Below, piece by piece: positions 42,201 to 63,133 of a stretch of 64,000 nucleotides of DNA. The stretch lies in contig CAKOLB010000004.1 in NCBI GenBank assembly GCA_934096125.1, positions 55,117 through 119,116 of the forward strand, in the 5' to 3' direction. Position numbers and translations under genes: made by a program. This DNA is from an uncultured Bacilli bacterium. Its GTDB lineage: Bacteria; Bacillota_I; Bacilli_A; RF39; UBA660. Below the pieces are notes generated by a model. That model worked only from the letters and a program-made list of their open reading frames with translations. It was not told the origin of the DNA and searched no databases. Each line of letters opens with the position of its first letter. Position 1 is the stretch's first letter.

Positions 42201-42247
42201 ATGAATGATAGAGCTTTAAAAAAGGTGGTTTTGGATGCCGGACATGG
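42201..42247 (+). pseudogene. Segment A (first ~16 codons) of an N-acetylmuramoyl-L-alanine amidase gene interrupted by mobile element 1
   Basis: MNDRALKKVVLDAGHG, then the frame breaks inside the Amidase_3 DAGHGG motif. The continuation GDDPGT lies at ~50580. Confidence 0.7.
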
Positions 42248-42315
42248 GAGATACTGTTATTCTACACAATGAATAGAAACTATCAGAACTAGTTGATTTA
42301 CATGAAAATTAAACT

Positions 42316-42346
42316 TTAAAGAGATATTTGAAAAAGTATCTCTTTT
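42316..42346. repeat. Perfect 9-bp inverted repeat upstream of mob (candidate oriT or terminator hairpin)
   Basis: aaagagata - tttgaaaaag - tatctcttt. Confidence 0.4.
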
Positions 42347-42373
42347 TGCATATTAAAAAAAAGGGGGAATTAT

Positions 42374-43633
42374 ATGAGTTATGCAATATTTAGAAGTCAA
42401 CCAATAAATACACTACAAGATTTAGCGCAAATTGGTTCACACAATAAAAGAGAAAAGAAAGCTTATAAGAGCAATCCAGATATAAAATTAGATAGAAGTA
42501 AGGATAATATAGAATTAGTAAAATGTGCTGAAAAATATGTTAAAAGATTTTACGAATTAACTAAAGACTATAAAAAAGAACATGAAGAAAGACAAAAGAC
42601 AATGCGAGAAGATAGAAAAAAATCCTATTATAAAATGCTTAATGATGCTAGAAATGTAGTAGCAGATGAATTGTTATTTACAAGTGATAGTTTATTCTTT
42701 AAAGATAAAAGTAAGAAAGAAATATTAAGGTGGGCTAATACTTGTATGGATTTTGTTTATAATGATTTAGGTTATACTAAAGAACAGGTATTACATTCTA
42801 CTATTCATATGGATGAAAAAACACCACACATTCATTGTGTAGTGATTCCACTAGTTAAAAAATTAGATAAAAGAACTAATACAGAAAGATATACTATCTC
42901 AAAAAAGCAATATATCAAAAATAACGAGCATTTAAGTGAATTACAAGATAAATACCATAATAGATTAGTTAAGGCTGGTTTTGATCTAGAAAGAGGTTTA
43001 AAAGGCAGTACAGCAGAGAATATAAATATAAAAGAATTTAAAAAAATGACTAGAAGGTTAGATAAGTCATTAGAGAAAAGTACACTATTATTAAATGATG
43101 ATTATAATGACTTAAAAGTTAAATTAAATAAAAGTAAACCTACAATAACTGGCAAGGAAGTTAAAATAGATAAAGATACTTATCAAACATTAAATAAATT
43201 TATGAGTACGGCTAAAAGAATAATAGAAGATATTCCTAAAACACAATCAATGGTAAAAACTTTAGATGAGTATACCAAAATCTTTAGAAGTACGCAAAGA
43301 GAGAATATTCAATTAAAGAAAGAAGTAAATAGACTTGAATTAGAAAAAGAAGAAATCAAACAAGAAAATAATAGACTAGAAAATCTTATGTATAATTTAC
43401 TTCAAAGATTAAAAGATTTATTTAAAAAAATTCTTCATATAGGTACTGATAAAGAAAAAGATAATGTATCAAAAGAAATAAAGTATCATTATGATAATAA
43501 TTATTATAACGATTTAGATTTATGCTATATTTCTAAGGGAACAACTAAAGAAAGAGATATATTTGAACACATTGGTTATATCAAAAAAGGGTATAACAAA
43601 GAAAAAGAAGAAGATTTTGATATAAATAGATAA
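42374..43633 (+). CDS. mob: MobV/Pre-family plasmid recombination/mobilisation relaxase
   Basis: N-terminal Mob_Pre pattern (MSYAIFRSQPINTLQDLAQIGSHNKRE...HMDEKTPHIHCVVIPLV), which is the His-rich relaxase motif. The C-terminus is a coiled coil. Confidence 0.85.
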   Translation: MSYAIFRSQPINTLQDLAQIGSHNKREKKAYKSNPDIKLDRSKDNIELVKCAEKYVKRFYELTKDYKKEHEERQKTMREDRKKSYYKMLNDARNVVADELLFTSDSLFFKDKSKKEILRWANTCMDFVYNDLGYTKEQVLHSTIHMDEKTPHIHCVVIPLVKKLDKRTNTERYTISKKQYIKNNEHLSELQDKYHNRLVKAGFDLERGLKGSTAENINIKEFKKMTRRLDKSLEKSTLLLNDDYNDLKVKLNKSKPTITGKEVKIDKDTYQTLNKFMSTAKRIIEDIPKTQSMVKTLDEYTKIFRSTQRENIQLKKEVNRLELEKEEIKQENNRLENLMYNLLQRLKDLFKKILHIGTDKEKDNVSKEIKYHYDNNYYNDLDLCYISKGTTKERDIFEHIGYIKKGYNKEKEEDFDINR

Positions 43634-43699
43634 GTCAAAACAAAAACGGACTTTTTTCGTGGTATAATAAAGAAAAACTTGTTATTTTTGGAGGTAGTT

Positions 43700-45910
43700 A
43701 TGAACAAAGAAAATAAAATTATAAATTTTAAAAATGAAGATTCAAAGAAAAATATTTCTTTAGAATTAGATAAAAAAATGATTTTTATTTACGGTAAAAA
43801 TGGTAGTGGCAAAACAACTTTTTCTAGATCGAACGATTTGGATAAAAAATATGTATTTAATGAAGACTTCGTATATAAAAATGTTTATATAATAGACGCT
43901 GAAGGAGCAAAAATTGATTCAGGTGTTAAAAATAATTTTTCAGAGTTGCTTGTTGGAGAAGATGTTGTTCTATTAAAAGAAAAACAAAATAAATTAGAAG
44001 AAATATATAAAGAATTAAATACTAAAAGTAATGATAATGAAACATTTATCAATTCTAGTTTAGCAAGTAATGGTATTCCAAACAGTTATAATTTTTTAAA
44101 GGAAAAAGTTGATGAAACTTTTAATTATGATGAAACAAAAACAATCGAAGAACAAATGGAGATATATAAGAGCGATTTAGAATTGGAACAGACTATTACA
44201 AATGATAAAGAGTTAGAAATCAATGTGAATCAAATAAAGAAACATGAGAATATTAAATTATTAATAGAAAAAATAAAAAAAATACCATTGTTAGAGGAGT
44301 TTCTTTTTTCAGAGGATTATCCAATACTATTGAAACTTAATTCTGATTTAGACATTATTAATACAAATATTCAAAACATTAAAAGTTTAGAAGAGTTAGG
44401 GAAAAAGAAAAGGGTAGAAAAAAATGATTTTTCTATTATAAGAGATTGTATAACATTACAAGAAAAAGTGGGAACTGATATTTGTGTATTATGTGGTAAT
44501 ACTGAAATTAAAGCAGGTATAGAAGAATGGAAGAAAATATTTCAGGACAAAACAGTAAATTTAAAAACGAAAGTAATATCAGAATTAAATGATATTCTAA
44601 AAAATTGTAAAACTATTATTGATGATAGAAAAGTATATGAACCTGTTGCACCTGGTACTATTAACAATATAATAATATTTATAGGAATTATAGAAAACGC
44701 TTTAAAAGAAGTGAATTTAGGCAATGTTTTAGAAATTAAATATCAAGAAATCGTAAGAGAAAAATATACTGAAGACATTATTCAAAAGTATAAAACTATT
44801 GCAAATTACGTATTAAAGAAATATAAAGATAAAACTATTTTCTTAAATTCATCACTTAAAAGTGTAGGTGGTAAAATAAAAGTAATAAAAGAAAACATAG
44901 AAAAAATTTTAAAGCTAAATGCTGACACCCATAAAGAATCAATAAACTCTATTCTTAAAGATTTGGGATTAGATAAAGAAATAACCGTTGGTGTTGATAG
45001 ACTAGGCGGTAAAATAAAATATTCACTAAATGTAGTTAATAACAATTTATCAAAATTGAGTGATGGGCAAAAACATAAATTAGCTTTGGCAATATTTTTA
45101 AATACTATTAAAAATGAAGATTTAAAAGGTAAAACAGTTGTGTTTGACGACCCTGTTGTTGCGCTTGATGAACTAGGATATCACTTTTTTAAACAATATG
45201 TTATAAAAAATATAATGAATAATCCTAACATAGAAGAATGCCCTAATCTTATTATATTAACTCACAACTTTAATTATCTTTATATACAAACAAGTAATAT
45301 AATAATTAGTCCTAATTTACAAGACAATACAAAAATATTGAAATTAAATTCAGATGGATTTAAAGAATTAGATTTTGAATTGTTTAAATTAGATGATATC
45401 GCATTATTTAAAAAATGCTTAGATAATATTAAGTATGAAGATGAATTGATAGACTTAAGTAGTTTATACAATAAAGTTTTTAGAGAATTTTTGGATTTAA
45501 AACTAAGAATACTTGGAAATCCATTAAATGGTAATCCAGCAGAAGAAATAAAGATAATAGTATCTGATGAACAAACAAGAAAATTGTTGCAGGAACAAAG
45601 TAATAAGTTAAGTAGTTATTCAAAAAATAAAAATATAACAATAGAAGAATCGAAAGAAGGTTTTTGCTTATTATCAGATATGCTAAAGACAATAGGGTTT
45701 GATGAATATATTCTGCCTCAAAACATTGATTCAATTAAAAATATTGTAAAGAGGGAAGAAATAATTTATTCAGATATATTTTATATTATTCATGAAATAG
45801 CAAATATTTTAAGAAATGAAGATAATAAATATAAAAATTATATAAATTATTTAAATCATCCAAGAATATCATTTACTAAAAATATGATGTCAACATCTAT
45901 GGATGCATAG
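43700..45910 (+). CDS. ABC-type ATPase with long coiled-coil insert and central CxxC (RloC/PrrC-like anticodon-nuclease candidate)
   Basis: Walker A GKNGSGKT near the N-terminus. CVLC (nt 44483-44494) lies midway to the ABC signature LSDGQKHKLALA and Walker B TVVFDDPV. A ~240-aa C-terminal domain follows. ATG 43700 has a GGAGGT RBS. Confidence 0.45.
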   Translation: MNKENKIINFKNEDSKKNISLELDKKMIFIYGKNGSGKTTFSRSNDLDKKYVFNEDFVYKNVYIIDAEGAKIDSGVKNNFSELLVGEDVVLLKEKQNKLEEIYKELNTKSNDNETFINSSLASNGIPNSYNFLKEKVDETFNYDETKTIEEQMEIYKSDLELEQTITNDKELEINVNQIKKHENIKLLIEKIKKIPLLEEFLFSEDYPILLKLNSDLDIINTNIQNIKSLEELGKKKRVEKNDFSIIRDCITLQEKVGTDICVLCGNTEIKAGIEEWKKIFQDKTVNLKTKVISELNDILKNCKTIIDDRKVYEPVAPGTINNIIIFIGIIENALKEVNLGNVLEIKYQEIVREKYTEDIIQKYKTIANYVLKKYKDKTIFLNSSLKSVGGKIKVIKENIEKILKLNADTHKESINSILKDLGLDKEITVGVDRLGGKIKYSLNVVNNNLSKLSDGQKHKLALAIFLNTIKNEDLKGKTVVFDDPVVALDELGYHFFKQYVIKNIMNNPNIEECPNLIILTHNFNYLYIQTSNIIISPNLQDNTKILKLNSDGFKELDFELFKLDDIALFKKCLDNIKYEDELIDLSSLYNKVFREFLDLKLRILGNPLNGNPAEEIKIIVSDEQTRKLLQEQSNKLSSYSKNKNITIEESKEGFCLLSDMLKTIGFDEYILPQNIDSIKNIVKREEIIYSDIFYIIHEIANILRNEDNKYKNYINYLNHPRISFTKNMMSTSMDA

Positions 45911-46069
45911 TCTTTTTTGAAAAATGGATATATAAAGATACATTTTAGTAACACACTACGATATTGACAGAGCCAATAACGATGTGTGCCAAGGGGATTG
46001 TCCCTTTGGAAACCCTATTAGCTCTATCGCCACTTTCATTGCTAAAGCAACAAAACGTGCCACGAGCTA

Positions 46070-46102
46070 AAAAGACTGACAAAAATTAATTGTCAGTCTT
46101 TT
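46070..46102. terminator. Bidirectional terminator between the ATPase gene and the convergent XRE gene
   Basis: 12-bp stem aaaagactgaca / tgtcagtctttt with a 9-nt loop. Confidence 0.75.
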
Positions 46103-46361
46103 CTGATGGAATATCATCAAATAGTTGTCTGATGTCTATTCCTAAAGCATCAGCAAATTTACCTATGGTTTCTAATGTTGGAGTTTTATCAATGCTTAAG
46201 CATTCTAAATCTCGAACATATCCATGAGTCAGTTCAGTTAAATCAGCTAATTCTTGAAGTGTATAACCACGTATAAGTCTGTATTTTCGAATGTTTTTTC
46301 TAACTTGAATAGATAAAATTGTTTTTGAATATCTTCTCATAGAAGTTATACACCTCCTCAC
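46086..46361 (-). CDS. XRE-family HTH transcriptional regulator
   Basis: HTH_3 pattern (RLIRGYTLQELADLTELTHGYVRDLE). Confidence 0.75.
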   Translation of the reverse strand: MRRCITSMRRYSKTILSIQVRKNIRKYRLIRGYTLQELADLTELTHGYVRDLECLSIDKTPTLETIGKFADALGIDIRQLFDDIPSEKTDN

Positions 46362-46448
46362 ATTTAAATTATTTCATAAAAATTTTAAAAAATATGTCGC
46401 CTGACAGAAGTTTTTGTGATATAATTAAAATGAAAGGAGACTGCTTTT

Positions 46449-46925
46449 ATGAAGAAATGCAAATATTGTCAAACTGAAATTGACTCAAAAGCAAAAATTT
46501 GCCCAAACTGTAAAAAGAAACAAGGTAAACCAAAATGGTTAATAGCTTTAATTGTTATTATTGTAATAATGATTATTGCATCTGTTGCTGGAGGTAACGA
46601 AGAGAATGCTAAGGAAGGAAATGTTTCAAACGGAGGTAATAAGCCAACAGAAAAATTTACTTATGAAGTAACAAAACAATATGCAGATGAATATGGTATG
46701 TCTTATTATATAGAAGGTAGTGTAAAAAATAATAAGGATAAAGATTATTCATATGTTCAAATTGAATTTGTTTGCTATGATGCAGAAGGCAATAACCTTG
46801 GAACTGCTATTGATAATACAAATAATTTACTAGGAAATCAGACTTGGAAATTTAAAGCAATGGCTATGTTTAGTGATGCTGAAACTGTTGATCATTGCGA
46901 TTATCATGAAATAACAAGCTGGTAA
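46449..46925 (+). CDS. Zinc-ribbon membrane-anchored protein of unknown function
   Basis: CKYCQ...CPNCKK zinc ribbon, one TM helix, then an extracytoplasmic domain. Confidence 0.4.
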   Translation: MKKCKYCQTEIDSKAKICPNCKKKQGKPKWLIALIVIIVIMIIASVAGGNEENAKEGNVSNGGNKPTEKFTYEVTKQYADEYGMSYYIEGSVKNNKDKDYSYVQIEFVCYDAEGNNLGTAIDNTNNLLGNQTWKFKAMAMFSDAETVDHCDYHEITSW

Positions 46926-47035
46926 AATAGTTGGAAGTCTTTTTAAGACTTCTTTTTGTTAGATTTTTTTACCAAAATAGTCGTTTTATATTTGTTTTAT
47001 GTTATAATAATATTTAATGAAAAAAGGGTGGTTTT

Positions 47036-47335
47036 ATGTATCAATTATTGAGTTTATTCAGTTTTCTTATTAGGGCATATTTGTGTTATTGCACAATAGA
47101 TAATATTCCAATATTAGCTAATCCGATATTAAATAGTATTTTAGGGGAAGTAATATCCTTATATACTATTTTGTGGGCAATAAGTTATTTTGTTGTTGGA
47201 AGATTTTATGATAAAGGTTCTGAACCCTTGTTAGGTGTTATTTTATATTTTATTGTATATGTTGTAATTCTGGGAATTACATATTTATTGTTGTTATTAT
47301 TAACATATATTGGAGTTTTACCAATAGTTATATAA
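47036..47335 (+). CDS. Small hydrophobic membrane protein
   Basis: 99 aa with three predicted TM helices. Confidence 0.3.
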   Translation: MYQLLSLFSFLIRAYLCYCTIDNIPILANPILNSILGEVISLYTILWAISYFVVGRFYDKGSEPLLGVILYFIVYVVILGITYLLLLLLTYIGVLPIVI

Positions 47336-47364
47336 ATAAAAAAACTTATCGTTGTGATAAGTTT

Positions 47365-47904
47365 TTATAGGTTTATTCTATCATCAGGTAATTTTGAGTA
47401 ATCATATTTTTCAGCACACATTTCTAAATCTTCGTAAATAGAGGTTAATTGTGCTAATATTTTTTCGGGTGGAAGTAATTCTTTATAATAATCATAATCT
47501 TTAAGTAAAAGCATCATTTGGAATATTCTTGTTCTGCAATCAGCAACTTTAGTTCTTTTCTCATAAGAATCTTCTAATAAATCCAATTGAGATTCTCTAT
47601 ATTGTTTTACTAATTCCTTTATATTTTTAGGAGTTTTATGTTTTGAAGTGTCTTTGAAACTATCTAGAATATCACTATAACCAGCAGTAGTTAAAAGAAA
47701 TTCTAAACTTATTTCTAATACTTCAGATAAACTTCTTAACATATCTATATCTGGTTTTTTAATATTACCTTTTTCAAGTTCATTATATGTAGAGTGATGT
47801 GTATTGATTAAACGAGCTACTTTTCTTTGAGAGTAGCCTTTTTTTGTTCTAGCAGTCCTTAATATTTTACTTAATTCTTCAAGATTAGCATTATTATTTT
47901 CCAT
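47365..47904 (-). CDS. XRE-family HTH regulator with C-terminal extension (repressor-like)
   Basis: N-terminal HTH (KKGYSQRKVARLINTHHSTYNELEKGN). It is divergent from the downstream winged-helix gene. Confidence 0.7.
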   Translation of the reverse strand: MENNNANLEELSKILRTARTKKGYSQRKVARLINTHHSTYNELEKGNIKKPDIDMLRSLSEVLEISLEFLLTTAGYSDILDSFKDTSKHKTPKNIKELVKQYRESQLDLLEDSYEKRTKVADCRTRIFQMMLLLKDYDYYKELLPPEKILAQLTSIYEDLEMCAEKYDYSKLPDDRINL

Positions 47905-48134
47905 TTAAACCACCTCTAAAATGCTTTCTTCCAATAACATAATACCATAACGAAAATTAAAAAGCAATAATTTTGTCGGTTATTCTTGACAAAATTATAA
48001 TTACAATGTATATTATAGTTGTCGGGCAATCTTGACAAAAAAGGGGGATAGTAATAAAGTAGATTGCTAATGCGACTAATGTTCTTTGAAAATTTACACA
48101 AGTCTTTAAAGGTTAATTAAAAGGGGGTGATAGC

Positions 48135-48638
48135 ATAACAGAATCTATAAAAGATGGGTTTTGGATTATACCTGCAAAAGTAGGTATAGATGATGCACTC
48201 ACATTACAAGATAAATTACTATATGCTCAAATCTTATCATTAACAAGACAAGATGGATTCTGTTTTGCTACTAATTCTTATCTATCTAATTTAAATAATG
48301 TTACTCCAAAAACAATTTCTAACAGTATTTCTAATCTTAAAAAAAATAATTATATACGAGTTGAATATCACAAGGAAAAAATAAATAAAGATAAAAGAAA
48401 AATATTTGTAACTGATAAGGGGGTATGGAAAACAAATCCTGGGGATATAGAAAAAAATGTTAATACCGGTATGGAAGATAATTTCCAATATAATAATATA
48501 AAGAATAAAAAGATAAAAAAATATAATACCAATAATAATGTTCCTTGGTGGCTAGATAAAGAAATTAAAGAAAATCCTGCATCTCTAGAAGAACAAGCAG
48601 AGATGGAAGCACTACTAAGCGAATTTAAAAAAGATTGA
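48135..48638 (+). CDS. Winged-helix replication-initiator-like protein whose start codon position is occupied by ATA (paralog of 52602-52895)
   Basis: The frame is open from 48117 to 48638 with no ATG, GTG or TTG in the first ~105 codons. The RBS AAAGGGGGTGAT sits 6 nt before ATA 48135. The translation aligns with the element-2 paralog (DGFWIIP...LLYAQILSLTRQDGFCFAT versus EGYVVMG...LLSIMLSLPDTWCYST), which starts with ATG at the equivalent position. Confidence 0.45.
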   Translation: MTESIKDGFWIIPAKVGIDDALTLQDKLLYAQILSLTRQDGFCFATNSYLSNLNNVTPKTISNSISNLKKNNYIRVEYHKEKINKDKRKIFVTDKGVWKTNPGDIEKNVNTGMEDNFQYNNIKNKKIKKYNTNNNVPWWLDKEIKENPASLEEQAEMEALLSEFKKD

Positions 48639-48937
48639 AAAGGAGTTGGTTTTATAAATAAATACAAGACTAAATCATAAAATTTAATAAAAAGGAAAAG
48701 GGGGAATTATAAGAATGGAGGTAGTACTTAAGGCAAAACACACATTTAAAACTGATATATCAAACGAAGAATTATTTAGAGATAGATTTAACGAGATATT
48801 GTTAAAAGTTATATTGCATCTTGAGCAAAATTACCAAAGTAGTTAAAAAAATTATAAATAACTATCAAAAAGGGGTATAATATAAGTTGTAGTCGATTTA
48901 GTTCTGATAGTTATACACAGAATTGGAGGATATAACT

Positions 48938-50533
48938 ATGAGACTAAGAGTTGGTATTTATGGGAGGTTATCACAAGAGGATATAGATAAGATAAACAAA
49001 GAAGATGAAAGTGAAAGTATCCAAAATCAAAAAAGAATGTTATTAGAGTATGCTTTAAAAAATGATTGGGATGTAGTTGATATTTATATTGATGAAGATT
49101 ATTCAGGTGCTGGAGTTTATAGACCAGAGTTTGAGAGAATGCTAAAAGATTGTGAAAATGGAAAACTAGATATAGTTTTATGTAAGAGTCAATCAAGATT
49201 CTCGAGAGATATGGAAATAATTGAAAGATATATAAATAACAAATTTAAAGAATGGAATGTTAGATTTATTAGTTTAGTAGATAATATAGATACTGATAAT
49301 AAATCTAATAAGAAATCTATTCAAATATTAGGACTAACTAATGAATGGTATTTAGAAGATTTATCAGATAACATTAAAAGAACAATTAGGAATAAAAAAG
49401 AGTCTGGACAATTTACTGGTTCATTTGCTCCCTATGGTTATTTAAGAAGTGAAGAAGATAAACACAAATTAGTTATTGATCCTATTGCTTCAATCATTGT
49501 TAAAAAGATATTTGAAATGTATAAACAAGGTAATGGTTATACTAAAATAGCAACTTATTTGAATGATACTAATGTTCCTAGTCCTTATGAACACAAAAAA
49601 GCAAGTGGTAGTAAATTTGTATGTGGAAATGTTGGAAAGGAAAAATCATATTGGTATTCAGATACAATTGCTAAAATCTTAAAAGATGAAGTATATATTG
49701 GAAATCTAGTACAAGGAAAAACAAGGCATATAAGTTATAAAAATAAAAAATCAGTTCCTGTTCCTAAAGAAGATTGGATAATTGTTAAAAACACACACGA
49801 ACCTATAATAGATGAAGATACTTGGAATATAGTTTCTGCTAAATTTAAAGGTAGGACAAAGCCAAGTAAATCTGGGGAAATTCATATGTTTACTAAAAAG
49901 GTTTATTGTGATTGTTGCAAAAAAATATTTTATAATGGTTATTCTAAATCAGGAAATGGGAACAAGCATTATTATTTAACTTGTAAGTCTAGAAAATCAG
50001 GGGTGTTTTGTGAAAATAATCTATCTATTAGAGTAGATAAATTAAAAGACTTTATCCTTAATGAGATTAATGAATATATCAAAGTTTATCATAATTCTAA
50101 AGCTTTAAATGAGAAATACCAAAAATTAAATACTAAGAATAATAAAAATGAGATTCAAGAACAAATTAAAACTTTGGAAAAACAACAAACTGAATTAGAA
50201 AAATCACAAAGTAAAAAGAATTCTTATTTAAGAAAATTATATGAAGATAGAATAGAGGGTTTCATTACTGATGAGCAATACAAAGCTTTTAGTAAAGACT
50301 ATGATGATGAATTAAATGAATTGCAAAACAGAATTCAATTAATAAAAGATGAAATCACTCTCTTAAATCAAAGGCACAGTGATATGATTGATAGAGATAA
50401 AATATTTAATAAATATAAATCTATAAAGGAATTAGATAGAAGTATATTAGATGATTTTATAGAAAAAATATATATCGGTGCAGTAGATAAAGAAACGAAT
50501 GAACGAGAAATAAATATTGTATGGGCCATATAA
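48938..50533 (+). CDS. Large serine recombinase (TnpX-like resolvase/integrase) of element 1
   Basis: N-terminal catalytic domain (RVGIYGRLSQED... with the serine in YGRLS, and ...SRFSRD), followed by a recombinase domain and a Cys-rich zinc ribbon (CDCCKK...CKSRKSGVFC). ATG 48938 has a GGAGGA RBS. Confidence 0.9.
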   Translation: MRLRVGIYGRLSQEDIDKINKEDESESIQNQKRMLLEYALKNDWDVVDIYIDEDYSGAGVYRPEFERMLKDCENGKLDIVLCKSQSRFSRDMEIIERYINNKFKEWNVRFISLVDNIDTDNKSNKKSIQILGLTNEWYLEDLSDNIKRTIRNKKESGQFTGSFAPYGYLRSEEDKHKLVIDPIASIIVKKIFEMYKQGNGYTKIATYLNDTNVPSPYEHKKASGSKFVCGNVGKEKSYWYSDTIAKILKDEVYIGNLVQGKTRHISYKNKKSVPVPKEDWIIVKNTHEPIIDEDTWNIVSAKFKGRTKPSKSGEIHMFTKKVYCDCCKKIFYNGYSKSGNGNKHYYLTCKSRKSGVFCENNLSIRVDKLKDFILNEINEYIKVYHNSKALNEKYQKLNTKNNKNEIQEQIKTLEKQQTELEKSQSKKNSYLRKLYEDRIEGFITDEQYKAFSKDYDDELNELQNRIQLIKDEITLLNQRHSDMIDRDKIFNKYKSIKELDRSILDDFIEKIYIGAVDKETNEREINIVWAI

Positions 50534-50576
50534 TTTAGTCCATACAGGACTTGTGTAGAATAAACATAACCTCCAC

Positions 50577-51840: not shown

Positions 51841-51914
51841 CTGTGTTTACCAAATTTTAAAATTTATGCTATAATTAAGATGTAATAATTATTTGACTAA
51901 GTGTGGTGAGTAGT

Positions 51915-54467: not shown

Positions 54468-54636
54468 AAAAATTTCCTTTCGATCTTGTTTTTATCTCAA
54501 AAATAATTTAAAATATATATATAGTGTTGATCTTTTTAAAATATTATTTTATAATTAATATGTAAGAAGTTGATCTTTTCGCTTAAATATATTATAATAT
54601 ATTTAAATATGTTTAACAATTATTAGGAGGCGTTTT

Positions 54637-55875
54637 ATGCAAAAAACAGTAGTAGAATTATTTGCCGGTGTTGGTGGATTTAGATGTGGATTAAATAATG
54701 TAAAATTAAAAGATAATAAAGTTATTGAAAAAGGTAATTGGAATTTTGTGTGGGCGAATCAATGGGAACCTTCTACTAAAACACAAGAGGCTTTTGAATG
54801 CTATTCAAAAAGATTTGGAAAGGATGATGTTAGTAATGTAGATATATTTCAAGTAAATAAAAAAGAGATACCTAATCATACTTTATTAGTTGGTGGTTTT
54901 CCATGTCAAGATTATTCTGTTGCACAGACACTATCTAATAGCAAAGGAATTGATGGAAAAAAAGGTGTTTTGTGGTGGGCAATTGCAGATATATTAAAAG
55001 TTAAGAAACCTCCATTTGTGTTTTTAGAAAATGTTGATCGCTTACTTCTTTCGCCAGCGAGTCAAAGAGGCAGAGATTTTGGAATAATTTTGAGAAGTTT
55101 TTATGAAAATGGATATGATTTAGAATGGCGAGTTATCAATGCGGGAGAATATGGATTTCAACAAAAACGTAGGAGAATTTATATAATTGCATATCACAAA
55201 TCAACTAAATATTGTAAGAAAATGAGAAAAATTGATAAGAAAAATATATTACTTAAGGAAGGTATTTTCATAAAACAGTTTCCTGTAAAAGAGAAAGAGT
55301 TTAACTCAAATGTATCAAGTATTTCAGAATATAAAGATTTAGTCGATGTTAGTGATAATTTTAAAAACCAATTTTATAATTCTGGAGTTATGATAAATGG
55401 TGAAATATATACTGCCAAATTAGAACATAATTGCGATAGTGTATATCAGTTAGGCAATTTAATAGAAACTAATAAGGTTGATGAAAAATATTTCCTTTCA
55501 AAAGATAGAATTGAGAAATTTAGAATATTAAAGGGAAGTAAAAGAATACCTAGAAAAAAGCCAAATGGAGATGATTACATTTATTCTGAAGGTTCAATGC
55601 CATTTCCTGATAATCTAAATGTTCCTGCTAGAACAATGCTGACTTCAGAAAGTGGAACTAGCAGAATGACACATGTTATAGAGGACTATAGAACTAAAAA
55701 ATTAAGATTTTTAACACCATTAGAGTGTGAAAGAATTAATGGATTTCCAGATAATTGGACAAATACTGGGATGAGTGATAAGAAACGATATTTCATGATG
55801 GGTAACGCTTTAGTAGTAAATGTTGTTGAAAAAATAGGGATTGAATTGGAAAAAATAGTAGAAATGGAAGAGTAA
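54637..55875 (+). CDS. DNA (cytosine-5)-methyltransferase
   Basis: Motif I LFAGVGG, motif IV GGFPCQDYS, motif VI ENV (FLENVDRL), and a C-terminal target-recognition region. Confidence 0.9.
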   Translation: MQKTVVELFAGVGGFRCGLNNVKLKDNKVIEKGNWNFVWANQWEPSTKTQEAFECYSKRFGKDDVSNVDIFQVNKKEIPNHTLLVGGFPCQDYSVAQTLSNSKGIDGKKGVLWWAIADILKVKKPPFVFLENVDRLLLSPASQRGRDFGIILRSFYENGYDLEWRVINAGEYGFQQKRRRIYIIAYHKSTKYCKKMRKIDKKNILLKEGIFIKQFPVKEKEFNSNVSSISEYKDLVDVSDNFKNQFYNSGVMINGEIYTAKLEHNCDSVYQLGNLIETNKVDEKYFLSKDRIEKFRILKGSKRIPRKKPNGDDYIYSEGSMPFPDNLNVPARTMLTSESGTSRMTHVIEDYRTKKLRFLTPLECERINGFPDNWTNTGMSDKKRYFMMGNALVVNVVEKIGIELEKIVEMEE

Positions 55876-55984
55876 ATGAAAAAATGTTAAAATTTGGTAA
55901 TTTATCTAAATAGTGTTATAATTTTATACAGAAGATATGCAGTATTTGTCTTTTTAAGATGGATACTGCATTTTTTTGAAGTAG

Positions 55985-56950
55985 GTGGTAGTATTGGATT
56001 CACTTAATTATGAAGTTTTTAAAAAAATAAAGAAATATTATAATGATAATTGCAAACCTTTAATTTTTGTTGGAGAAAAATTATTATCGCAGAATAACAA
56101 ATGTAAAATGTATTTTTGTGATGTTGATTTAAATCAAGAAAAAGAAAATTATAGAAAAGTTTTTCAAGAATATTTGGCACTTTATGTTAGAAATCATGAT
56201 TTGCTAAAATATTATGATAAGATTATAAAAAGTGAAACAGAAGATGAAATTTCAGAAGCTTTAATTTATTATGGAAATGATTTGTGGAATAATACCGTAT
56301 TGATAACTACAACTACACCAGAGACTTTAGGGATATATGGAGAAGCCATTAATGATTTTTATTTAAATATTGTTAAGAATGAAAATATAATTATCACTTA
56401 TTCAGCAAAAAGGGGGTATGGTGAACGTAATATAAAAGGGGTAGATGTAGTTGCATGTACTTGGAAAAAAGATAATCTTGTACTAATATTTTCTGAGTGT
56501 AAATTTGTCGAATCAATATATAAGGCGTCGTGTGGTTTATATAATGATATAAAGGGAACTCAATATGAATTGGCACATATAAGTAAAGATTATATAAACG
56601 GATATTCTACTTATATTGTTGATAATGCTCATTCAATTTTTGCAGAGAGTAATAATTCAGATAAAATTATAGATGTTTTGGACAAATTGAATAGTAGGAT
56701 AATAAATGGAAACAAGGCGATAGATGTGTTTAATGAATTAAACATAAAAATTCAATTTAATTTCTTTGCAATTTACTGTGATAATAAATTTACACCAGAT
56801 GAAAGACAAATAATGTTTGAAAAAGTATATAATGCTTTTTATGAAAATGTAAAATTAACAGGTATTAAAAATTATGATATGGAAATTGTGTATATACCTA
56901 TTAAAAATACAAGCTCTGTGGTAAAGGAATGTATGAGACAATGGAATTGA
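55985..56950 (+). CDS. HamA-like (DUF1837-type) protein with a PD-(D/E)xK motif; Hachiman-like component A
   Basis: GVDVVACTWKKDNLVLIFSECKF gives D...(E)xK spacing typical of PD-(D/E)xK nucleases. It lies immediately upstream of, and overlaps, an SF2 helicase gene. The TTG or GTG start follows an AGGTGG RBS. Confidence 0.45.
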   Translation: MVVLDSLNYEVFKKIKKYYNDNCKPLIFVGEKLLSQNNKCKMYFCDVDLNQEKENYRKVFQEYLALYVRNHDLLKYYDKIIKSETEDEISEALIYYGNDLWNNTVLITTTTPETLGIYGEAINDFYLNIVKNENIIITYSAKRGYGERNIKGVDVVACTWKKDNLVLIFSECKFVESIYKASCGLYNDIKGTQYELAHISKDYINGYSTYIVDNAHSIFAESNNSDKIIDVLDKLNSRIINGNKAIDVFNELNIKIQFNFFAIYCDNKFTPDERQIMFEKVYNAFYENVKLTGIKNYDMEIVYIPIKNTSSVVKECMRQWN

Positions 56951-59322
56951 CACGAAATACAATTGTAAAGAAAATAAATTTATTTTCAATGGAAAGGAAT
57001 AATAAAGAATTAATAAATCTACTATGTGATATTTTAGAAAGTAAAAATTACATGGATAATTATGATCTTATTTTAATTATAATAAATATTGCCGAACTTT
57101 ATGGTTATCAAGAATTTTTTAATAATTTTGATGCAAATAGTATACCTAAATATAACGTGCATGCAATATCTAATGATATTAGAAAAAATCTATATAAAAG
57201 CAAAAAAGGTAATAATATATATTATAATTCTGGACAATTATCTTTATTAAAAGAATTATCACTATATGATAAGCTTTTTATATCAGCTCCCACGTCATTT
57301 GGTAAAACCAGTTTAGTTTTAGAGCATATAGCAATGAATAACTCAATATATAAAACTATTATTTTTTTAGCTCCAACTAATGCATTAGTAGAAGAATTGT
57401 ATCTAAAATTTTTAAAATTAAATAAAGAATGTAATTTAAATTATGATGTAATAACAATGCCAAAAAATAAAAATAATAATACAATATGGATATTAACACC
57501 AGAGAAATTTTTACTTTTGGTTGAAGAAAAAAGTATAGATTTTGATTTGATAGTTATGGATGAGGCTTATAAAATTGAAAATGAAGAATCAATTGATAGA
57601 AAAGATATTTTAAATTCTAGGTCAAGCAAATATAGGAAAGTAATGGAATATATGGCTAATTCTAATTCGAAGATTATATTTTTATCTCCATATACTTATA
57701 ATAAGGCGCCATCTATGACAAGATTCTTAAAAAAATATAGTATCAAGGATATTGACAGGAATATTAATTATGTAAAAAAAGACATAATAGATATTTATGA
57801 TAGCAAAAGTTATAAAAGTAATTTTTCCAATAGTATATTTAGTATTAAAAAAGGTGATTCTGGGATTAAAAAAGCAATGGCAGCTGTTCCCTATTTATCT
57901 GATAATACAATTATATATGTAAAATATCCAAGTGAGGCAATAAAAGTTTTAGAATTAATGCCTAATGAAAAAGCAAGTATAGATAATGAAAGATTTAAAA
58001 AATTTTTGAACCATTTAAAAGAAAATTATTTATTTGAAGACAGCAATTGGTATATTATAGATGCTCTAGAAAAGGGAATTGGCATATATGTATCACCTAT
58101 TCCTCGATATATAAAAAAAGAAATAATATATTTATTTAATAAGGGAATAATAAAAAAACTTATAGTTACAACTGCATTTGCTGAAGGAGTTAATAGTTCA
58201 GCTAAGAACATAATTATAACAAATAGAATAACAGGATCTAATAAAAAACTAACTAATTTGGATATATTGAATTTAAGTGGTAGAGCAGGCAGATTTGGTG
58301 TATATAGCAAAGGAAAAGTTTTTTCTGCAGTTGAAGAAGTAAGTGATATTTTAAGAAAATCATCTGAAAATGGAGTAATTATAAATAATCCTAATTACGA
58401 ATTAGCAAGTGATATTATACCTAGAACTGATTATGAAATCGATATGATAGATGATTATCTATTAAATGAAGAAGAAAAAAATATAAAGGAAACCACAAAA
58501 AAAAGGCAATTAAATTTTAATTTGACCAACGATGATTTAAATATAGCTTTATCAATTGCAAATGAAATAAAAATCGATGTATATTCATATTTTTTTGAAA
58601 CAATTAACAATGGAAAAATTCAAGATATAAGATTTAATAATATTAAAAATTTATTGTCTACAGAGAAAAATGATATTATAAAATCAATTACATTTATTTT
58701 TAACGAATTAAAAAATGCAGATATTCCAATAGTTTCAGATTTTGGTGATATTAATCCATTTAATAGTAAAGGTGATTTTATTTGGGGCATTTTTTACGGA
58801 ATCCACTCTTCAGGAAATATTAGAGATGTTTTGAAATCAAGAAAAGGCTTTATTTTAAAACAGTTAAGTGAAATTGAAAAAATATTAAATTTAAAACTTA
58901 AAAATTTTAATAATAAAGAAATAGAAAAAATATTACGTGAGTACGATAAAAAATGGATATACGATTATTTAACTAAAGGTGAAATTGATGATGCAAAACT
59001 ATATAATGGTGCATTTAAATTTATATCAAACATAATTGAATATAGAATACCATTTTATATTGGATTGTATATATCAGTTTTTAAAATGTTTTGTAGAAAG
59101 AATAATTTAAATTATGATTTTAATTTTGATATTGTTGAAATATCTACATCATTAGAAAATAAAAATATAGAAAAAAAGTATTCTGATATGTTGGAATTTG
59201 GCATACCATTAGATACAATCAAAAAGATAAATAAATTTAAAAATGATAATAATATTTTTGAAATATTAGATGATTATGAAAAAATTATGTTAAGTGAATA
59301 TAATTACTATTTTGATAAATAA
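56929..59322 (+). CDS. SF2 DExH-type helicase, HamB-like (Hachiman-like component B)
   Basis: Motif I APTSFGKTS, motif II VMDEAY and motif VI SGRAGRFG. 797 aa, overlapping the upstream gene by 22 nt. Confidence 0.5.
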   Translation: MYETMELTRNTIVKKINLFSMERNNKELINLLCDILESKNYMDNYDLILIIINIAELYGYQEFFNNFDANSIPKYNVHAISNDIRKNLYKSKKGNNIYYNSGQLSLLKELSLYDKLFISAPTSFGKTSLVLEHIAMNNSIYKTIIFLAPTNALVEELYLKFLKLNKECNLNYDVITMPKNKNNNTIWILTPEKFLLLVEEKSIDFDLIVMDEAYKIENEESIDRKDILNSRSSKYRKVMEYMANSNSKIIFLSPYTYNKAPSMTRFLKKYSIKDIDRNINYVKKDIIDIYDSKSYKSNFSNSIFSIKKGDSGIKKAMAAVPYLSDNTIIYVKYPSEAIKVLELMPNEKASIDNERFKKFLNHLKENYLFEDSNWYIIDALEKGIGIYVSPIPRYIKKEIIYLFNKGIIKKLIVTTAFAEGVNSSAKNIIITNRITGSNKKLTNLDILNLSGRAGRFGVYSKGKVFSAVEEVSDILRKSSENGVIINNPNYELASDIIPRTDYEIDMIDDYLLNEEEKNIKETTKKRQLNFNLTNDDLNIALSIANEIKIDVYSYFFETINNGKIQDIRFNNIKNLLSTEKNDIIKSITFIFNELKNADIPIVSDFGDINPFNSKGDFIWGIFYGIHSSGNIRDVLKSRKGFILKQLSEIEKILNLKLKNFNNKEIEKILREYDKKWIYDYLTKGEIDDAKLYNGAFKFISNIIEYRIPFYIGLYISVFKMFCRKNNLNYDFNFDIVEISTSLENKNIEKKYSDMLEFGIPLDTIKKINKFKNDNNIFEILDDYEKIMLSEYNYYFDK

Positions 59323-59636
59323 AATCATGTCCGTTGACTGTCCTATAAATTTATGGTAAAATGGTAATATAGGATAAGTGTAAGAGATGCAAATTTATGA
59401 GAGGATTTTCCCTCTTTTTTTGTGTCTTTAAAAAAAATTATCTTTTTGAAAGAAAGGTAAATTTTATCTAAAATATTCTAAACTGTCGGAGACTATTAGT
59501 GGGTTTTAGGGATATTCCCTAACAAGCTAGATGGGTGTGTATACACCATGCTTGATATATTATATTACACGGGTATGTAACCTCAAAATAGGATTTAATG
59601 GTAATCTGAAATGTGGTATGAAATGAAAGGAGAAAT

Positions 59637-60209
59637 ATGGAATTTAAGTCAATGGAGAAGTGGCGTGTTTTACAGAAGTTTAAAATTAGCGAAAAACAGT
59701 ATAAGAGATTAGTGAAAAGATTAAAAAGAAGACATCCTAATGAAAGATGGATTGATGAACATTTTGCTCAAAATGGTGAAAGAGTAGTATATCTAAAATT
59801 AGAATTTGTAGAATGGATAGAAGAAGTTTATTTAAATAACAATCTATTTTATTTAGATGCTGAAATTGTTTTCTTTAAAAAGCAAATATTAAGACTAGAA
59901 GATGAATTAAATTTTCCTCATAGTGGGTTTGAATATGAAGATATATCTTTAAAAGATTTAAGGGAGTATTTTAATAAGAGTAAAGATGTGATAGGTGTTG
60001 CAATAAATAGAATGGAAAAGAGAAATGATAAATCATTCAAGTATATAAAAGATGCTAAAGTTATGATTAATAAAGAAGGCGTTAAATGGTTAAGTGAAAA
60101 CTATTTCCGTAAAGATTATTTAAAAAAGTTAGAATTTTATAAATTAGAACTTCAAAATGTTAAGAGAAAAAGAAATAGATTAAAAGAATATAGTATTTTC
60201 TATTACTAA
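59637..60209 (+). CDS. Hypothetical basic protein upstream of the recombinase (possible recombination directionality factor or regulator)
   Basis: 190-aa ORF, Lys/Arg-rich, with no recognised motif. Confidence 0.3.
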   Translation: MEFKSMEKWRVLQKFKISEKQYKRLVKRLKRRHPNERWIDEHFAQNGERVVYLKLEFVEWIEEVYLNNNLFYLDAEIVFFKKQILRLEDELNFPHSGFEYEDISLKDLREYFNKSKDVIGVAINRMEKRNDKSFKYIKDAKVMINKEGVKWLSENYFRKDYLKKLEFYKLELQNVKRKRNRLKEYSIFYY

Positions 60210-60463
60210 CTAGATTAGTTTGGAATATAACTAATTTTTTTATGTCCTAATTTTGATAATAAAGTCTTATAGTTGTTCTTATTTCATAAAATGAAAGGAG
60301 AGGTGTAGATTAGTGAATATAACTGAAACTTTCGATAAAGATAAAAACTTGGTTGAATTAATAGAGGAGTATTTAAAATTGATGTTAGAAAATAGTAAGC
60401 AATAAGAGTTTGTGATATAATGATATTGCTTATTGAAGTTATACACGTTGGAAGGAGTAGTAA

Positions 60464-62089
60464 GTGTATAACAATGTAATACAAGCACCAAGTTTTTATA
60501 GAGTAGGTATATATATCAGATTATCAGAAAGTGATGAAGATAAAACTTATGAGTCAGAGAGTGAAAGTATAATCAATCAAAGAAATTTATTAATGGATTA
60601 TGTAAAAATGAGTGGATTTACTTTGGTTGATGAGTATGTAGATGATGGATTTACAGGAACTAACTTTGATAGGCCTTCTTTTCAAAGATTATTAAAAGAT
60701 ATTGAAAGTGGTCGAATCAATTGTGTAATCACAAAAGACTTATCAAGATTAGGTAGAGATTATATTCAATGTGGATATTATGTAGAACAATATTTTCCAC
60801 AAAAGAAAATTAGATATATTTCTATACTAGATCAAGTTGATACATTTCTAGAAAGTGCTAATAATGACATTGCTCCATTTAAAGCTTTGTTTAATGATAT
60901 GACTAGTAAGGATACTTCTAAGAAGATTCGTTCAATATTAAAAAATAAAAAAGAACAGGGTAAATTTATTGGAAGCAAACCATGTTATGGATATATGAGA
61001 GATCCACTTGATAAAGGACATTTAATACCCAATCCAGAAGTTGCTCCTGTTGTTAAAAGGATATTTAAAATGGCTCATTCTGGAACTGGAGTAAGTGATA
61101 TAGTATCATACTTAAATGATAATAAGATATTAAGCCCTAGTATGTATAAAAATACTAAATCATCTTCAAGACAAAAAGTGAATGTATGGACAATATCCTC
61201 AGTCAACAAATTACTAAAAAATAGAATGTATACAGGAGATATGGTACAAAATGTTCAAACTAAGTTAAGTTATAAATCTCAGAAGAAAGTTGCTTTAGAA
61301 AAAGAGTTTTGGATAATAGTTGAAAATACTCATGAACCTCTTGTTAGTAAAACAGTATTTGAAGCAATACAAAATGCTCCTGCTAGAGTAAGGACAACCC
61401 ATTGTAATAGAGAAAAAAGATTATTAGAAAATCTTCTTGTTTGCAAAGAATGTGGAAACTCTTTAAGCGTTCTTTATAGAAAAAATAAAAATTATAAGGG
61501 TGGAAAGTATTGGAGTGTTAATTGCAATAAATATGCAAGAGATCCAAGAAGACATTTGTGCTATCCACACTTCTTTCCTTATGATAAACTAGAAGAAAAA
61601 ATAATGAGTGTTATTAAAACTACTTGTCAAAAATATTTAGATAGTTTAAATATCAAAGAATTATCTGAAAGAGTATTACAAGATAGAGCAAAGGAAAAGA
61701 ATGATAGGCAAAAGGAAAAGCAACAATTATTAAATGAGATTGATGAATTAAAAAGAAAATCTGATGCTTTATATGATGACAAATTTAATGGAATAATAAG
61801 TGTTGATACTTATACAAGAATCTCTGCACAAACTGAAAAACAAATATCAGCCTTAAATTATAGAATTTATGAAATAGATAATGAAGAAAATCAGATTAAA
61901 GAAGATACAAAAGAAATAACTAAATATGAAGAACAAATAAAATCACTTTTAAATTTAGATGAACCCAACAGAGAACTCATAAAAACTTTAGTAAAAAAAA
62001 TTTATATAGATAAAGATAGAAATATAGAAATTCAATATAGATTTAAGGTGCTAGATGATATAAAAACTAATTATGAAGAAATAAATTAA
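60464..62089 (+). CDS. Large serine recombinase (TnpX-like) of element 2, GTG start
   Basis: RVGIYIRLSESDED (catalytic Ser) ...SRLGRD, a recombinase domain, a zinc ribbon CKECGN...CNKYARDPRRHLC and a C-terminal coiled coil. RBS GGAAGGAG. Confidence 0.9.
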   Translation: MYNNVIQAPSFYRVGIYIRLSESDEDKTYESESESIINQRNLLMDYVKMSGFTLVDEYVDDGFTGTNFDRPSFQRLLKDIESGRINCVITKDLSRLGRDYIQCGYYVEQYFPQKKIRYISILDQVDTFLESANNDIAPFKALFNDMTSKDTSKKIRSILKNKKEQGKFIGSKPCYGYMRDPLDKGHLIPNPEVAPVVKRIFKMAHSGTGVSDIVSYLNDNKILSPSMYKNTKSSSRQKVNVWTISSVNKLLKNRMYTGDMVQNVQTKLSYKSQKKVALEKEFWIIVENTHEPLVSKTVFEAIQNAPARVRTTHCNREKRLLENLLVCKECGNSLSVLYRKNKNYKGGKYWSVNCNKYARDPRRHLCYPHFFPYDKLEEKIMSVIKTTCQKYLDSLNIKELSERVLQDRAKEKNDRQKEKQQLLNEIDELKRKSDALYDDKFNGIISVDTYTRISAQTEKQISALNYRIYEIDNEENQIKEDTKEITKYEEQIKSLLNLDEPNRELIKTLVKKIYIDKDRNIEIQYRFKVLDDIKTNYEEIN

Positions 62090-62218
62090 ATAATAAAAAT
62101 AGGGTGGTAAAATTTGGTAATCACACAATCTTACCATCCCCTATACTATTTTTAGAAAAAATAAAAACGCAGTAAAATCAAGAAAAATGATAGCCTAATC
62201 ACATAAAATCTTTCCGGA

Positions 62219-63133
62219 GGTGGCGATGGTGCAGAAGTAATATATGCTCTTAGAAATAATGATGTATTTGCAAGTAAAATTGCAAGAGAACTAGAGAGTG
62301 CAGGACAAAATATTAGAAAATATTATCAGAGAAGACTTCCAAGTAATCCAGCGAAAGATTATTATTATATAATGCGAGATACTCCTAATAATGAAACTGT
62401 AATTGTAGAGTATGGGTTTGCAGATTCTACTGGTGATGATGTTGAGCAGTTAAAAAATACTTGGGAAAACTTAGCAGAAGCGGTGGTTAAAGCAATTACT
62501 GAGTATGCTGGCGGTACTTATACACTTCCAAATACGGGCAATTATTACATAGTTAAAAGTGGTGATAGTCTATGGAGCATATCCAAAAAAACAGATGTTT
62601 CTATTGCCAAGATTAAGGAACTTAATAATCTTAAGAGTAATTTGTTAAGTATTGGTCAGAAATTAACATTACCACAAACAAGTGAAGATACCCCATCGCT
62701 AGATACATATATTGTTCAAAAAGGCGATAGTTTATATAAAATCGCTAACAAGTTTAATACTACTGTTGATAACTTAAAACTTATTAACAATCTTCAAAGC
62801 AATAATTTAGCTATAGGTCAAAAATTAAAGGTAAGTAGTAGTGAAAACAAATACACAGTGCAAAAAGGTGATACACTATACAGCATTGCCACTAAATTTT
62901 CTGTTAGTGTAGATTCATTAAAAAACGCTAATAATTTAGTTAGTAACACAATTGCCGTTGGTCAATCCTTAATTATCCCAGAACAAAAAACAACTAAAAC
63001 TTATACGGTTCAAAAAGGCGATAATCTTTATAGCATAGCAAGGCGATATAATACGACTGTAAATACAATAATGTCTTTAAATAATCTAGCTTCAACTAAT
63101 TTAACTATCGGTCAAAAGCTACTTGTTCCGTAA
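62219..63133 (+). pseudogene. Segment C (~305 codons) of the interrupted amidase gene: Amidase_3 C-terminal part plus four LysM repeats
   Basis: DGAEVIYALRNN...YIMRDTPNNETVIVEYGFADS, then four LysM repeats (YIVKSGDSLWSIS..., YIVQKGDSLYKIA..., YTVQKGDTLYSIA..., YTVQKGDNLYSIA...). It is in frame with segment B across the GA junction. Confidence 0.75.

Follow-up and report, generated by a model that had tools for sequence, protein, structure and literature searches.

Introduction

Elements that interrupt sporulation genes have been described in sigK, spsM, spoVFB, spoVR, gerE, and yabG (PMC4191935, PMC5595907, PMC10747680). In sigK the element is skin, which depends on SpoIVCA/Skr in B. subtilis and on CD1231/CD1234 in C. 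difficile (PMC5025042). SPbeta resides in spsM (SprA/SprB; PMC4191935, PMC5499854), and yin in yabG of C. botulinum (PMC10747680). In Bacillus cereus ATCC 10987, gerE is split by gin (GirC/GirX), a non-phage element with restriction-modification cargo that is excised during sporulation (PMC5595907). Here, we analyze a 64,000-nucleotide (nt) stretch of contig CAKOLB010000004.1 from an uncultured, low-GC gut bacterium of the class Bacilli (hereafter, the window), in which a gene for a putative LysM-containing cell-wall amidase is split into three pieces by two adjacent elements, element 1 and element 2, each with its own large serine recombinase (LSR1 and LSR2). Our literature searches turned up neither an amidase gene interrupted like this nor a sporulation gene that hosts two elements. 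A first-pass annotation of the window had called two elements in one gene unusual. This holds for the sporulation genes in the literature we found, whereas in the lineage studied here the arrangement is recurrent.

The closest case is gin. It, too, is of non-phage type and carries genes for serine recombinase(s) and restriction-modification, it splits the coding region of a late mother-cell gene (a putative one in our case), and it has a short core at both junctions and a small accessory factor next to the recombinase, for which our elements offer a candidate only. It differs in having a regulator rather than an amidase as target, in its size (28.6 kb versus 8–15 kb), and in its three recombinases, compared to one per element here. 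Moreover, gin is a single element with demonstrated excision, whereas in our case there are two elements per gene, three sites are in use, and excision is a proposal. Like our elements, skin bears a recombinase gene; it interrupts a mother-cell gene, and its precise excision restores the open reading frame (ORF); its constitutive recombinase and sporulation-controlled factor follow the logic that we propose below. However, skin represents a defective prophage and its target encodes a sigma factor, while the elements described here are non-phage, carry genes for defence and mobilisation, and actively spread from genus to genus. SPbeta and yin are likewise still-mobile elements in sporulation genes with an end-placed recombinase gene, and their directionality factor has a sporulation-type promoter; both are prophages, with one element per gene.

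A further parallel is found in cyanobacterial heterocysts, where several independent elements (nifD/XisA, fdxN/XisF, and hupL/XisC) are excised in one terminally differentiated cell and genes are restored, as we propose for our locus. XisF is a large serine recombinase, and heterocyst nif genes can contain multiple elements per gene. LSR1 and LSR2 match the NCBIfam model of XisF with E-values of 7e-32 and 6e-25, respectively, both below its cut-off. The heterocyst elements belong to another phylum and another programme and are largely domesticated and vertically inherited, in contrast to the horizontal transfer and defence cargo seen here. On balance, we consider developmental excision of the skin or gin type, which would rebuild the amidase gene in the mother cell, to be the best reading of the locus, and we hold it with modest confidence.

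Results

Two Elements Split One Amidase Gene

The window was compared with related loci and contigs (labelled L001 to L090), and Pfam, NCBIfam (with its cut-offs), PADLOC, IMG/VR, a collection of 15 billion proteins, and phage and plasmid collections were used as databases. The pieces of the gene and the two elements are arranged as follows:

42201..42247, plus strand: amidase fragment 1 (MNDRALKKVVLDAGH and 2 nt of the Gly16 codon); core GG at 42246-42247
42248..50580, no strand: element 1, a mobilizable integrative element of 8,333 bp; GC 25.4% (host 29.8%)
50581..50805, plus strand: amidase fragment 2 (codons 16-91, GDDPGT...SNHINAGG); core GG at 50804-50805
50806..62220, no strand: element 2, an LSR-borne defence island of 11,415 bp; GC 25.6%
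62221..63133, plus strand: amidase fragment 3 (GGDGAEVIY..., the remaining catalytic domain and four LysM repeats); stop codon at 63131-63133

The ATG at 42201, which follows a Shine-Dalgarno sequence, opens the frame MNDRALKKVVLDAGHG, and the amidase sequence is lost after 42247. Fragment 1 has the same sequence as the beginning of the gene's uninterrupted 5' part in four contigs of the same species (L075, L079, L084, and L085). The breaks fall at 42247/42248, 50580/50581, 50805/50806, and 62220/62221. Joining 42201-42247, 50581-50805, and 62221-63133 gives a continuous reading frame of 1185 nt, that is, an intact ORF for a protein of 394 amino acids (aa). In this product, Pfam Amidase_3 matches residues 9-185 (5.9e-27), and four LysM repeats are recognised (4.8e-68). 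The protein can be aligned with its orthologues over the full length and contains all residues that are invariant among them. Uninterrupted full-length orthologues with about 70% identity are abundant and were found in over 30 species.

The proposal in the first-pass annotation that the three fragments, in this order, rebuild one amidase (of about 395 aa) was thus borne out, as was the placement of both elements in the same orientation, each with an LSR gene next to its right junction. All three fragments lie on the plus strand, and both LSR genes are on the same strand, 45–130 nt from the junction. Its junction coordinates had to be corrected: the breaks do lie at the element boundaries, but the join it gave (42201-42247, 50582-50806, and 62219-63133) is out of frame. 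An alternative join at 50806/62219 is in frame, yet was rejected, since it produces four glycines (NAGGGGDG) where every orthologue has NAGGGDG(AEV).

Only the short length of fragment 1 (47 nt) could suggest an artefact, i.e., unrelated partial genes or a mis-assembly. The same double arrangement is present in independent assemblies (L081, L083, and similar ones), the exact empty site 1 is present elsewhere, and the joined protein aligns over its whole length. An artefact is therefore refuted for practical purposes.

Crossover Sites and Precision of Insertion

The empty site 1 predicted from the window, GATGCCGGACATGGTGGTGATGATCC, is present exactly in L075, L079, L084, and L085. In these contigs, the flanks of which are 98.9–100% identical to the window, site 1 reads GGATGCCGGACATGGTGGTGATGATCCGGGG; L075, L079, and L084 contain element 2, and site 2 is occupied in L085 as well. 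For site 2, L006 reads AATGCAGGAGGTGGCGAT across the empty site, compared to AATGCAGGGGGTGGCGAT for the predicted join of the window, and the two differ only by a silent change at the third position of one Gly codon.

A comparison of left and right attachment sites (attL and attR), tandem-hybrid junctions, and empty sites placed the site 2 crossover at the GG that opens the second Gly codon in AAT GCA GGN GG|T GGC GAT (Gly91, GGG GG|T). The core is limited to GG because the base in front of it varies from arm to arm (A, C, T, or G), and the next two in that direction are part of the arm. Site 1 recombines at the GG of CAT GG|T (Gly16). The motif CA[CT]ATA[AT][AT]A recurs in all four half-sites of element 2 and lies about 3 nt farther from the core in the P arm than in the B arm. 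The predicted junction sequences are GGATGCCGGACATGGTGGTGATGATCC for attB1, ACCTCCACATGGGAGATACTG for attP1, ATAAATGCAGGGGGTGGCGATGGTGC for attB2, and TCTTTCCGGAGGACAGGACGCG for attP2.

The junctions thus show a 2-bp crossover, imperfect inverted half-sites, and no long direct repeats, and the predicted recombinases have three domains with an N-terminal catalytic serine motif, as in other LSR-borne integrative elements. We regard this insertion anatomy as essentially certain. Two unrelated LSR-driven elements have integrated site-specifically into one host gene, and each recombinase lineage uses its own attB within that gene. As a side observation, a stretch of 13 nt in the P arm of element 2 (62190-62220) is a copy of sequence in the host B arm (50783-50805), TAATCACATAAA.

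The Amidase Gene as a Recurrent Landing Pad

A scan for the amidase with one genome per species yielded 73 loci, in about 57 of which site 2 was readable. All 73 derive from uncultured Bacilli of the gut, whose labels vary (Bacilli, 'Tenericutes', CAG:460, CAG:609, or Candidatus Onthocola). Three LSR-specific sites are used in the gene, at codons ~16, ~91, and ~205, and about 40% of the species representatives are interrupted, several of them doubly.

Site 2 is occupied in 23 of the ~57 readable representatives, and two further loci break there at a contig edge. Where the upstream sequence suffices, an LSR2 homologue (43–100% identical) lies directly upstream of the occupied site on the same strand, and five or more distinct P-arm families are represented at this site. 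Insertions at site 1 were seen in L016, L032, and L065. In the first two, LSR1 homologues (~50% identical) are found directly upstream; the contig of L065 ends before the region of the recombinase gene. Site 3 lies in the first LysM repeat (GGNGATA|) and is occupied in L038, L055, L058, and L062. The element in L062 (4438-8333) is only ~3.9 kb long, and a recombinase of a third clade, 40% identical to LSR2, is encoded directly upstream of site 3. Wherever a predicted recombinase adjoins a junction, its clade correlates with the insertion site.

Sites 1 and 2 are both occupied in the species of the window (also in L081 and L083) and in contig CAKOIM010000005 (L053/L065), and sites 2 and 3 in L058 and L062, so that the double arrangement recurs in at least three other species. 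In addition, L080, L082, L089, and L090 have tandem pairs of elements at site 2 (at ~300-345 or ~2330-2380) with a hybrid P/P' junction, AACTAAACTCTCC|AGG|ACAGGACGCG.

Two loci contain orphan attR-like junctions (L029 13261-13341 and L043 ~1227) followed by ~27 amidase codons (DGAEVIYA...), one of them 2–3 kb and the other less than 100 bp downstream of the real gene. They appear to be relics of earlier or tandem insertions. LSR genes also occur near, and not inside, intact amidase genes (L028 12512-14047, L001 12945-13553, and L039 3187-4311).

Occupancy within the Species and Spread between Hosts

A sub-ORF of fragment 3 encodes a 253-aa product that is recorded, in exactly this form, in 93 blocks. 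Four different elements were found upstream of it at site 2 in this species: the element with the 541-aa LSR2; the commonest one, which has a 529-aa recombinase 43% identical to LSR2; one with the P arm AACTGAACTCATCA; and the L074/L085 type. Site 2 is interrupted in every allele of this species found in the searches we ran. Among the best hits in the 15-billion-protein collection there was no intact allele of this species, and the best full-length hit was 71% identical. Nevertheless, the amidase fragments of this species are intact and undegraded. Over 915 nt, the two most divergent strains are separated by 8 synonymous and 4 non-synonymous changes; the resulting ratio of non-synonymous to synonymous polymorphism (pN/pS) of 0.14 (P ~0.001 versus neutrality) indicates purifying selection within the species.

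Element 2 occurs at the same codon in other hosts with 99.9–100% identity, and near-identical copies are present in four or more divergent hosts. The identical LSR2 protein was found in 35 blocks and the identical phosphoesterase of element 2 in 77 blocks, in at least four host contexts. In one of these (context B), the only one in which the host amidase was rebuilt in full, this protein is ~54% identical to the closest relatives of the amidase of the window; the 5' fragments of the other element 2 hosts differ as well. Within one element 2 host, the elements diverge by 0–0.1%, compared to 0.4–1.3% for the host flanks. As near-identical elements are set in diverged flanks, acquisition must have been repeated and recent. 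Elements with defence and mobilisation cargo move between divergent hosts.

The mobility and youth of the elements, together with tandem arrays and orphan att relics that are typical of hot-spot integration, would also fit a tolerated knock-out. Here, ordinary integrative mobilizable elements would use conserved codons (GHGGDD, NAGGGDG, and GD(S/T)LW in LysM) as attB, the amidase would be dispensable or redundant in the gut, and excision would be sporadic and serve horizontal transfer, with no developmental programme to restore the gene. We consider this the main rival of developmental excision and a serious, though less probable, possibility. It is at odds with the interruption of every allele of the species on record (93 blocks, four elements) by elements that leave the fragments undegraded and the changes mostly synonymous, and with the convergence of three recombinase clades on one gene with a sigma-K-type promoter (see below). 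Furthermore, target specificity was kept while the recombinases diverged to 43% identity, which requires that attB was continuously conserved and hence selected. The pN/pS signal has to be read with caution: since the elements are younger than the divergence of the strains, it is not assignable to the interrupted state, and it may date from times when the gene was intact, which weakens the case for developmental excision.

Gene Content of the Elements

Element 1 contains the following features:

42257-42269 and 50551-50563: terminal inverted repeats, TTATTCTACACAA and TTGTGTAGAATAA, respectively
42374..43633, plus strand: Mob_Pre (MobV-type) relaxase (Pfam PF01076, 8.4e-28)
43679..45910, plus strand: AAA_13 ATPase (1.3e-13) resembling the PADLOC candidate defence protein PDC-S06 (1.2e-11)
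48135..48638, plus strand: HTH_36 backbone protein (Pfam PF13730, 5.1e-9; tblastn homologues in L016, L023, L024, and L032)
48715..48846, plus strand: 43-aa micro-ORF directly upstream of LSR1 with CATAAAAT in front; candidate accessory or directionality factor
48923..50533, plus strand: LSR1, 536 aa (Resolvase, Recombinase, Zn_ribbon_recom, and DUF4368; motif VGIYGRLS)

It also encodes two XRE-type regulators. The DUF4368 match of LSR1 has an E-value of 5.8e-8, and LSR1 aligns with TndX at 33.6% identity, the alignment covering 98% of the protein. LSR1 and LSR2 share 32.6% identity and the catalytic VGIY-R-L-S motif. We found no record of the exact LSR1 product, but there are records of 531-aa variants. 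The best matches of LSR1 and LSR2 in the phage and plasmid collections searched are at most 37% identical.

Tn4451, which encodes TnpX together with TnpZ, and Tn5397, which has TndX, represent a family of mobilizable or conjugative transposons of clostridia and enterococci. Element 1, and only this element, shares with them the combination of a DUF4368-type recombinase and a Mob/Pre relaxase; it has no resistance gene. These transposons use a GA core and a loose target, whereas here the core is GG and one codon is fixed in all hosts.

Element 2 contains the following features:

50929..51840, plus strand: metallophosphoesterase, the left-end backbone gene (Pfam PF00149; 92% identical in L065)
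53070..54467, minus strand: type II restriction endonuclease, MutH/Sau3AI-like (Pfam MutH 2.6e-30; PADLOC REase_II 3.3e-105)
54637..55875, plus strand: C-5 cytosine DNA methyltransferase (Pfam 2.2e-65; PADLOC MTase_II 9.4e-166)
55985..59322, plus strand: Hachiman pair (HamA-like at 55985-56950; HamB helicase at 56929-59322)
60314..60406, plus strand: 30-aa micro-ORF upstream of LSR2, with CATAAAAT, 3 nt, and a Shine-Dalgarno sequence in front
60464..62089, plus strand: LSR2, 541 aa (Resolvase, Recombinase, and Zn_ribbon_recom; motif VGIYIRLS)

A BglII-like nuclease, an HTH_36 protein, and a 190-aa backbone protein are also encoded. The Hachiman assignment is based on HamA lying beside HamB: the PADLOC match is strong for HamB (8.9e-71) and weak for HamA (2.3e-4, with a weak match to PF08878, DUF1837). 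Relatives of element 2 keep a backbone of phosphoesterase, HTH_36 protein, 190-aa protein, micro-ORF, and recombinase, and exchange their cargo. The complete element in L029 carries two C5 methylases and McrBC as cargo and lacks the phosphoesterase gene. The phosphoesterase was also considered as a directionality factor resembling gp47 of Bxb1. The pairwise E-value was 0.019 and the gene is absent from L029, so that this weak lead is not supported. From its sequence, the gene appears to have its own sigma-A-type -10 box.

The Amidase as a Putative Late Mother-Cell Gene

The start region of the amidase gene contains two signals:

42178-42186, plus strand: -10 box, CATATAATA
42191-42197, plus strand: Shine-Dalgarno sequence, AGGTGAT

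In 31 orthologous loci, a CATAnnnTA block is located right upstream of the Shine-Dalgarno sequence, while the surrounding intergenic sequence has diverged. A two-block pattern (AC-N16/17-CATAnnnTA-N2-12-AGGTGA) is present in 24 of these 31 loci; the background of the -10 block is 4.8e-4 per nt. The conserved motif matches the sigma-K consensus of B. subtilis; this and our other promoter assignments are consensus matches. Sigma-K logos have been published, and the consensus has been argued to be conserved among endospore-formers (PMC517825). The protein lacks a signal peptide, as its catalytic domain begins at residue 9, and is thus made in the cytoplasm. CwlC of B. subtilis, a hydrolase of terminal-phase mother-cell lysis, is built in a similar way: it starts with an Amidase_3 domain that no signal peptide precedes, ends in wall-binding repeats, and has a promoter signature of the sigma-K class (PMC517825); its wall-binding repeats differ from the LysM repeats found here, and orthology and function of our amidase are putative. 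Taken together, these features suggest that the amidase gene belongs to the sigma-K class of late mother-cell genes and that its product is an analogue of CwlC.

The first-pass annotation had placed the gene in a genome with many sporulation genes. Three candidates lie in the window:

5209-5985: YabG, above the NCBIfam cut-off
27157-27807: CwlD-like amidase, a second Amidase_3 gene, below the NCBIfam cut-off
10890-12515, minus strand: SpoVB-like flippase, below the NCBIfam cut-off

A SleB-type hydrolase and Spo0A are encoded just downstream in contigs of the same species. The description therefore holds for YabG, Spo0A, and the SleB-type hydrolase, and less so for the two proteins below the cut-off. 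The upstream regions of the yabG, cwlD-like, and spoVB-like genes in the window gave no clear sigma-K or sigma-E motif for calibration, and a generic promoter scan was uninformative (156 promoter-like sites versus 154.8 in shuffled sequences).

Excision of the Elements and Its Possible Control

If the amidase is expressed late in the mother cell, its interruption would be costless during growth. Recombination of attL with attR in the terminally differentiated mother cell would then excise both elements and rebuild the gene, while the forespore would keep them. In this proposal, which resembles the arrangement of SprA/SprB and CD1231/CD1234 (PMC4191935, PMC5025042), the recombinase genes would be constitutive (sigma-A-type), and direction would be set by an accessory factor, for which the best candidate is a micro-ORF of 30–45 aa with a -10-like box of the mother-cell type (CATAAAnT).

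Consistent with this, sigma-A-type extended -10 boxes (TGnTATAAT or TATCAT) precede the recombinase genes, TGTGATATAAT in the case of LSR2. The micro-ORFs form a family with a shared aromatic and amphipathic-helix pattern and end 43–126 nt upstream of the recombinase gene. They were found in nine LSR2-family elements and all three LSR1-family elements, and not upstream of the recombinase in L027, L029, and L040. The micro-ORF of these nine LSR2-family elements, like that of element 1, has CATAAA(A/T)T, 3–5 nt, and a Shine-Dalgarno sequence in front of it (background of the box, 2.9e-4 per nt), a layout that matches the start region of the amidase gene. Homologues of the micro-ORF were seen in L016, L023-25, L032, L044, L046, L047, L052, L053, and L062.

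Several observations weigh against developmental excision. The window's own -35 element is TC instead of AC, the amidase -10 box is only 3–5 nt from the Shine-Dalgarno sequence, and no recognisable -35 element accompanies the box of the micro-ORF. No sigma-K two-block motif was found before any plus-strand gene of the elements; a read-through from the amidase promoter into the elements, which we had also considered, is unsupported for the same reason. The exact attP1 and attP2 junctions had no hits in IMG/VR viral contigs, no attB2 (empty site 2) allele of this species was found, and a single metagenome scan with a 24-mer of fragment 2 returned one contig, again occupied at site 2. Moreover, recombinases of the TndX/TnpX type, which LSR1 resembles, need no directionality factor and insert into genes irrespective of development. 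Since amidases of the CwlC type are redundant in B. subtilis, a knock-out of the amidase could be tolerated. As sporulation-specific excision is inferred, we do not assign the elements to the developmentally excised class (skin, SPbeta, vfbin, vrin, gin, and yin). Of the skin-type reading in the first-pass annotation, the split gene and its restoration by a precise join stand, whereas no attB2 or attP excision product was found. Excision during sporulation is plausible and gains indirect support from the sigma-K-type promoter, the CwlC-like architecture, the sporulation genes of the host, and the intact fragments in a species whose alleles on record are all interrupted.

Further evidence bears on the tolerated knock-out introduced above. 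It would account for cargo that consists of defence and mobilisation genes and includes no sporulation genes, for the sigma-A-type recombinase promoters and the relationship of LSR1 to TndX, and for the missing attB and attP products in the metagenome scan and IMG/VR. The second, CwlD-like Amidase_3 gene at 27157-27807 also speaks for it. On the other hand, wherever an element within a mother-cell gene of a spore-former has been tested, it excises developmentally or in a growth-phase-dependent manner (PMC5595907, PMC4191935, PMC10747680).

A reversible switch outside sporulation, comparable to the 'active lysogeny' at comK, would toggle an autolysin by vegetative excision and re-integration under stress or phage attack. 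Recombinase elements can act reversibly in this way (regulated gene integrity, PMC7192596), the recombinase genes appear to be constitutive, and the cargo is anti-phage. But the amidase has no signal peptide and a promoter of the sigma-K type rather than the sigma-A type, two independent elements would need to be toggled jointly, and no allele with an empty site 2 was seen in assemblies of this species. We therefore consider such a switch improbable.

Developmental excision, in contrast, could be part of a wider arrangement, which we put forward as a speculative extension and regard as rather doubtful. Throughout a clade of uncultured, spore-forming gut Bacilli, one late mother-cell lysis amidase gene would dock three recombinase lineages, all residents (up to two were seen per gene, and more in tandem) would have to excise in the mother cell, and spore release would be coupled to freed circular defence elements. 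Directionality would be provided by a new family of 30–45-aa micro-proteins under mother-cell-type promoters.

Significance of the Locus

If excision does rebuild the gene, a cell-wall hydrolase would join the sporulation genes under DNA rearrangement, and developmental rearrangement would be known from a gut lineage that is uncultured and genome-reduced. There would also be one gene that hosts several independent elements, as is otherwise known from cyanobacterial heterocysts. Regardless of how excision is regulated, the results provide three new recombinase/attB pairs with exact crossover positions, which are candidate orthogonal integrases. They also reveal a very successful Hachiman and restriction-modification island that moves between divergent hosts, and a contested integration site that is occupied in every allele of the species on record. 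Of wider interest are this landing pad, with its three sites, several recombinase lineages, and constant occupancy, and the spread of the defence island across hosts, which may help to understand how such islands spread in the gut.

Other Features of the Window

Outside the amidase locus, two ORFs at 19762-20256 (164 aa) and 20247-20798 (183 aa) gave partial matches to ECF-transporter ATPases, covering profile positions 156-269 and 112-226, respectively. This pair (19762-20798) may be a truncated or degenerate EcfA pair.

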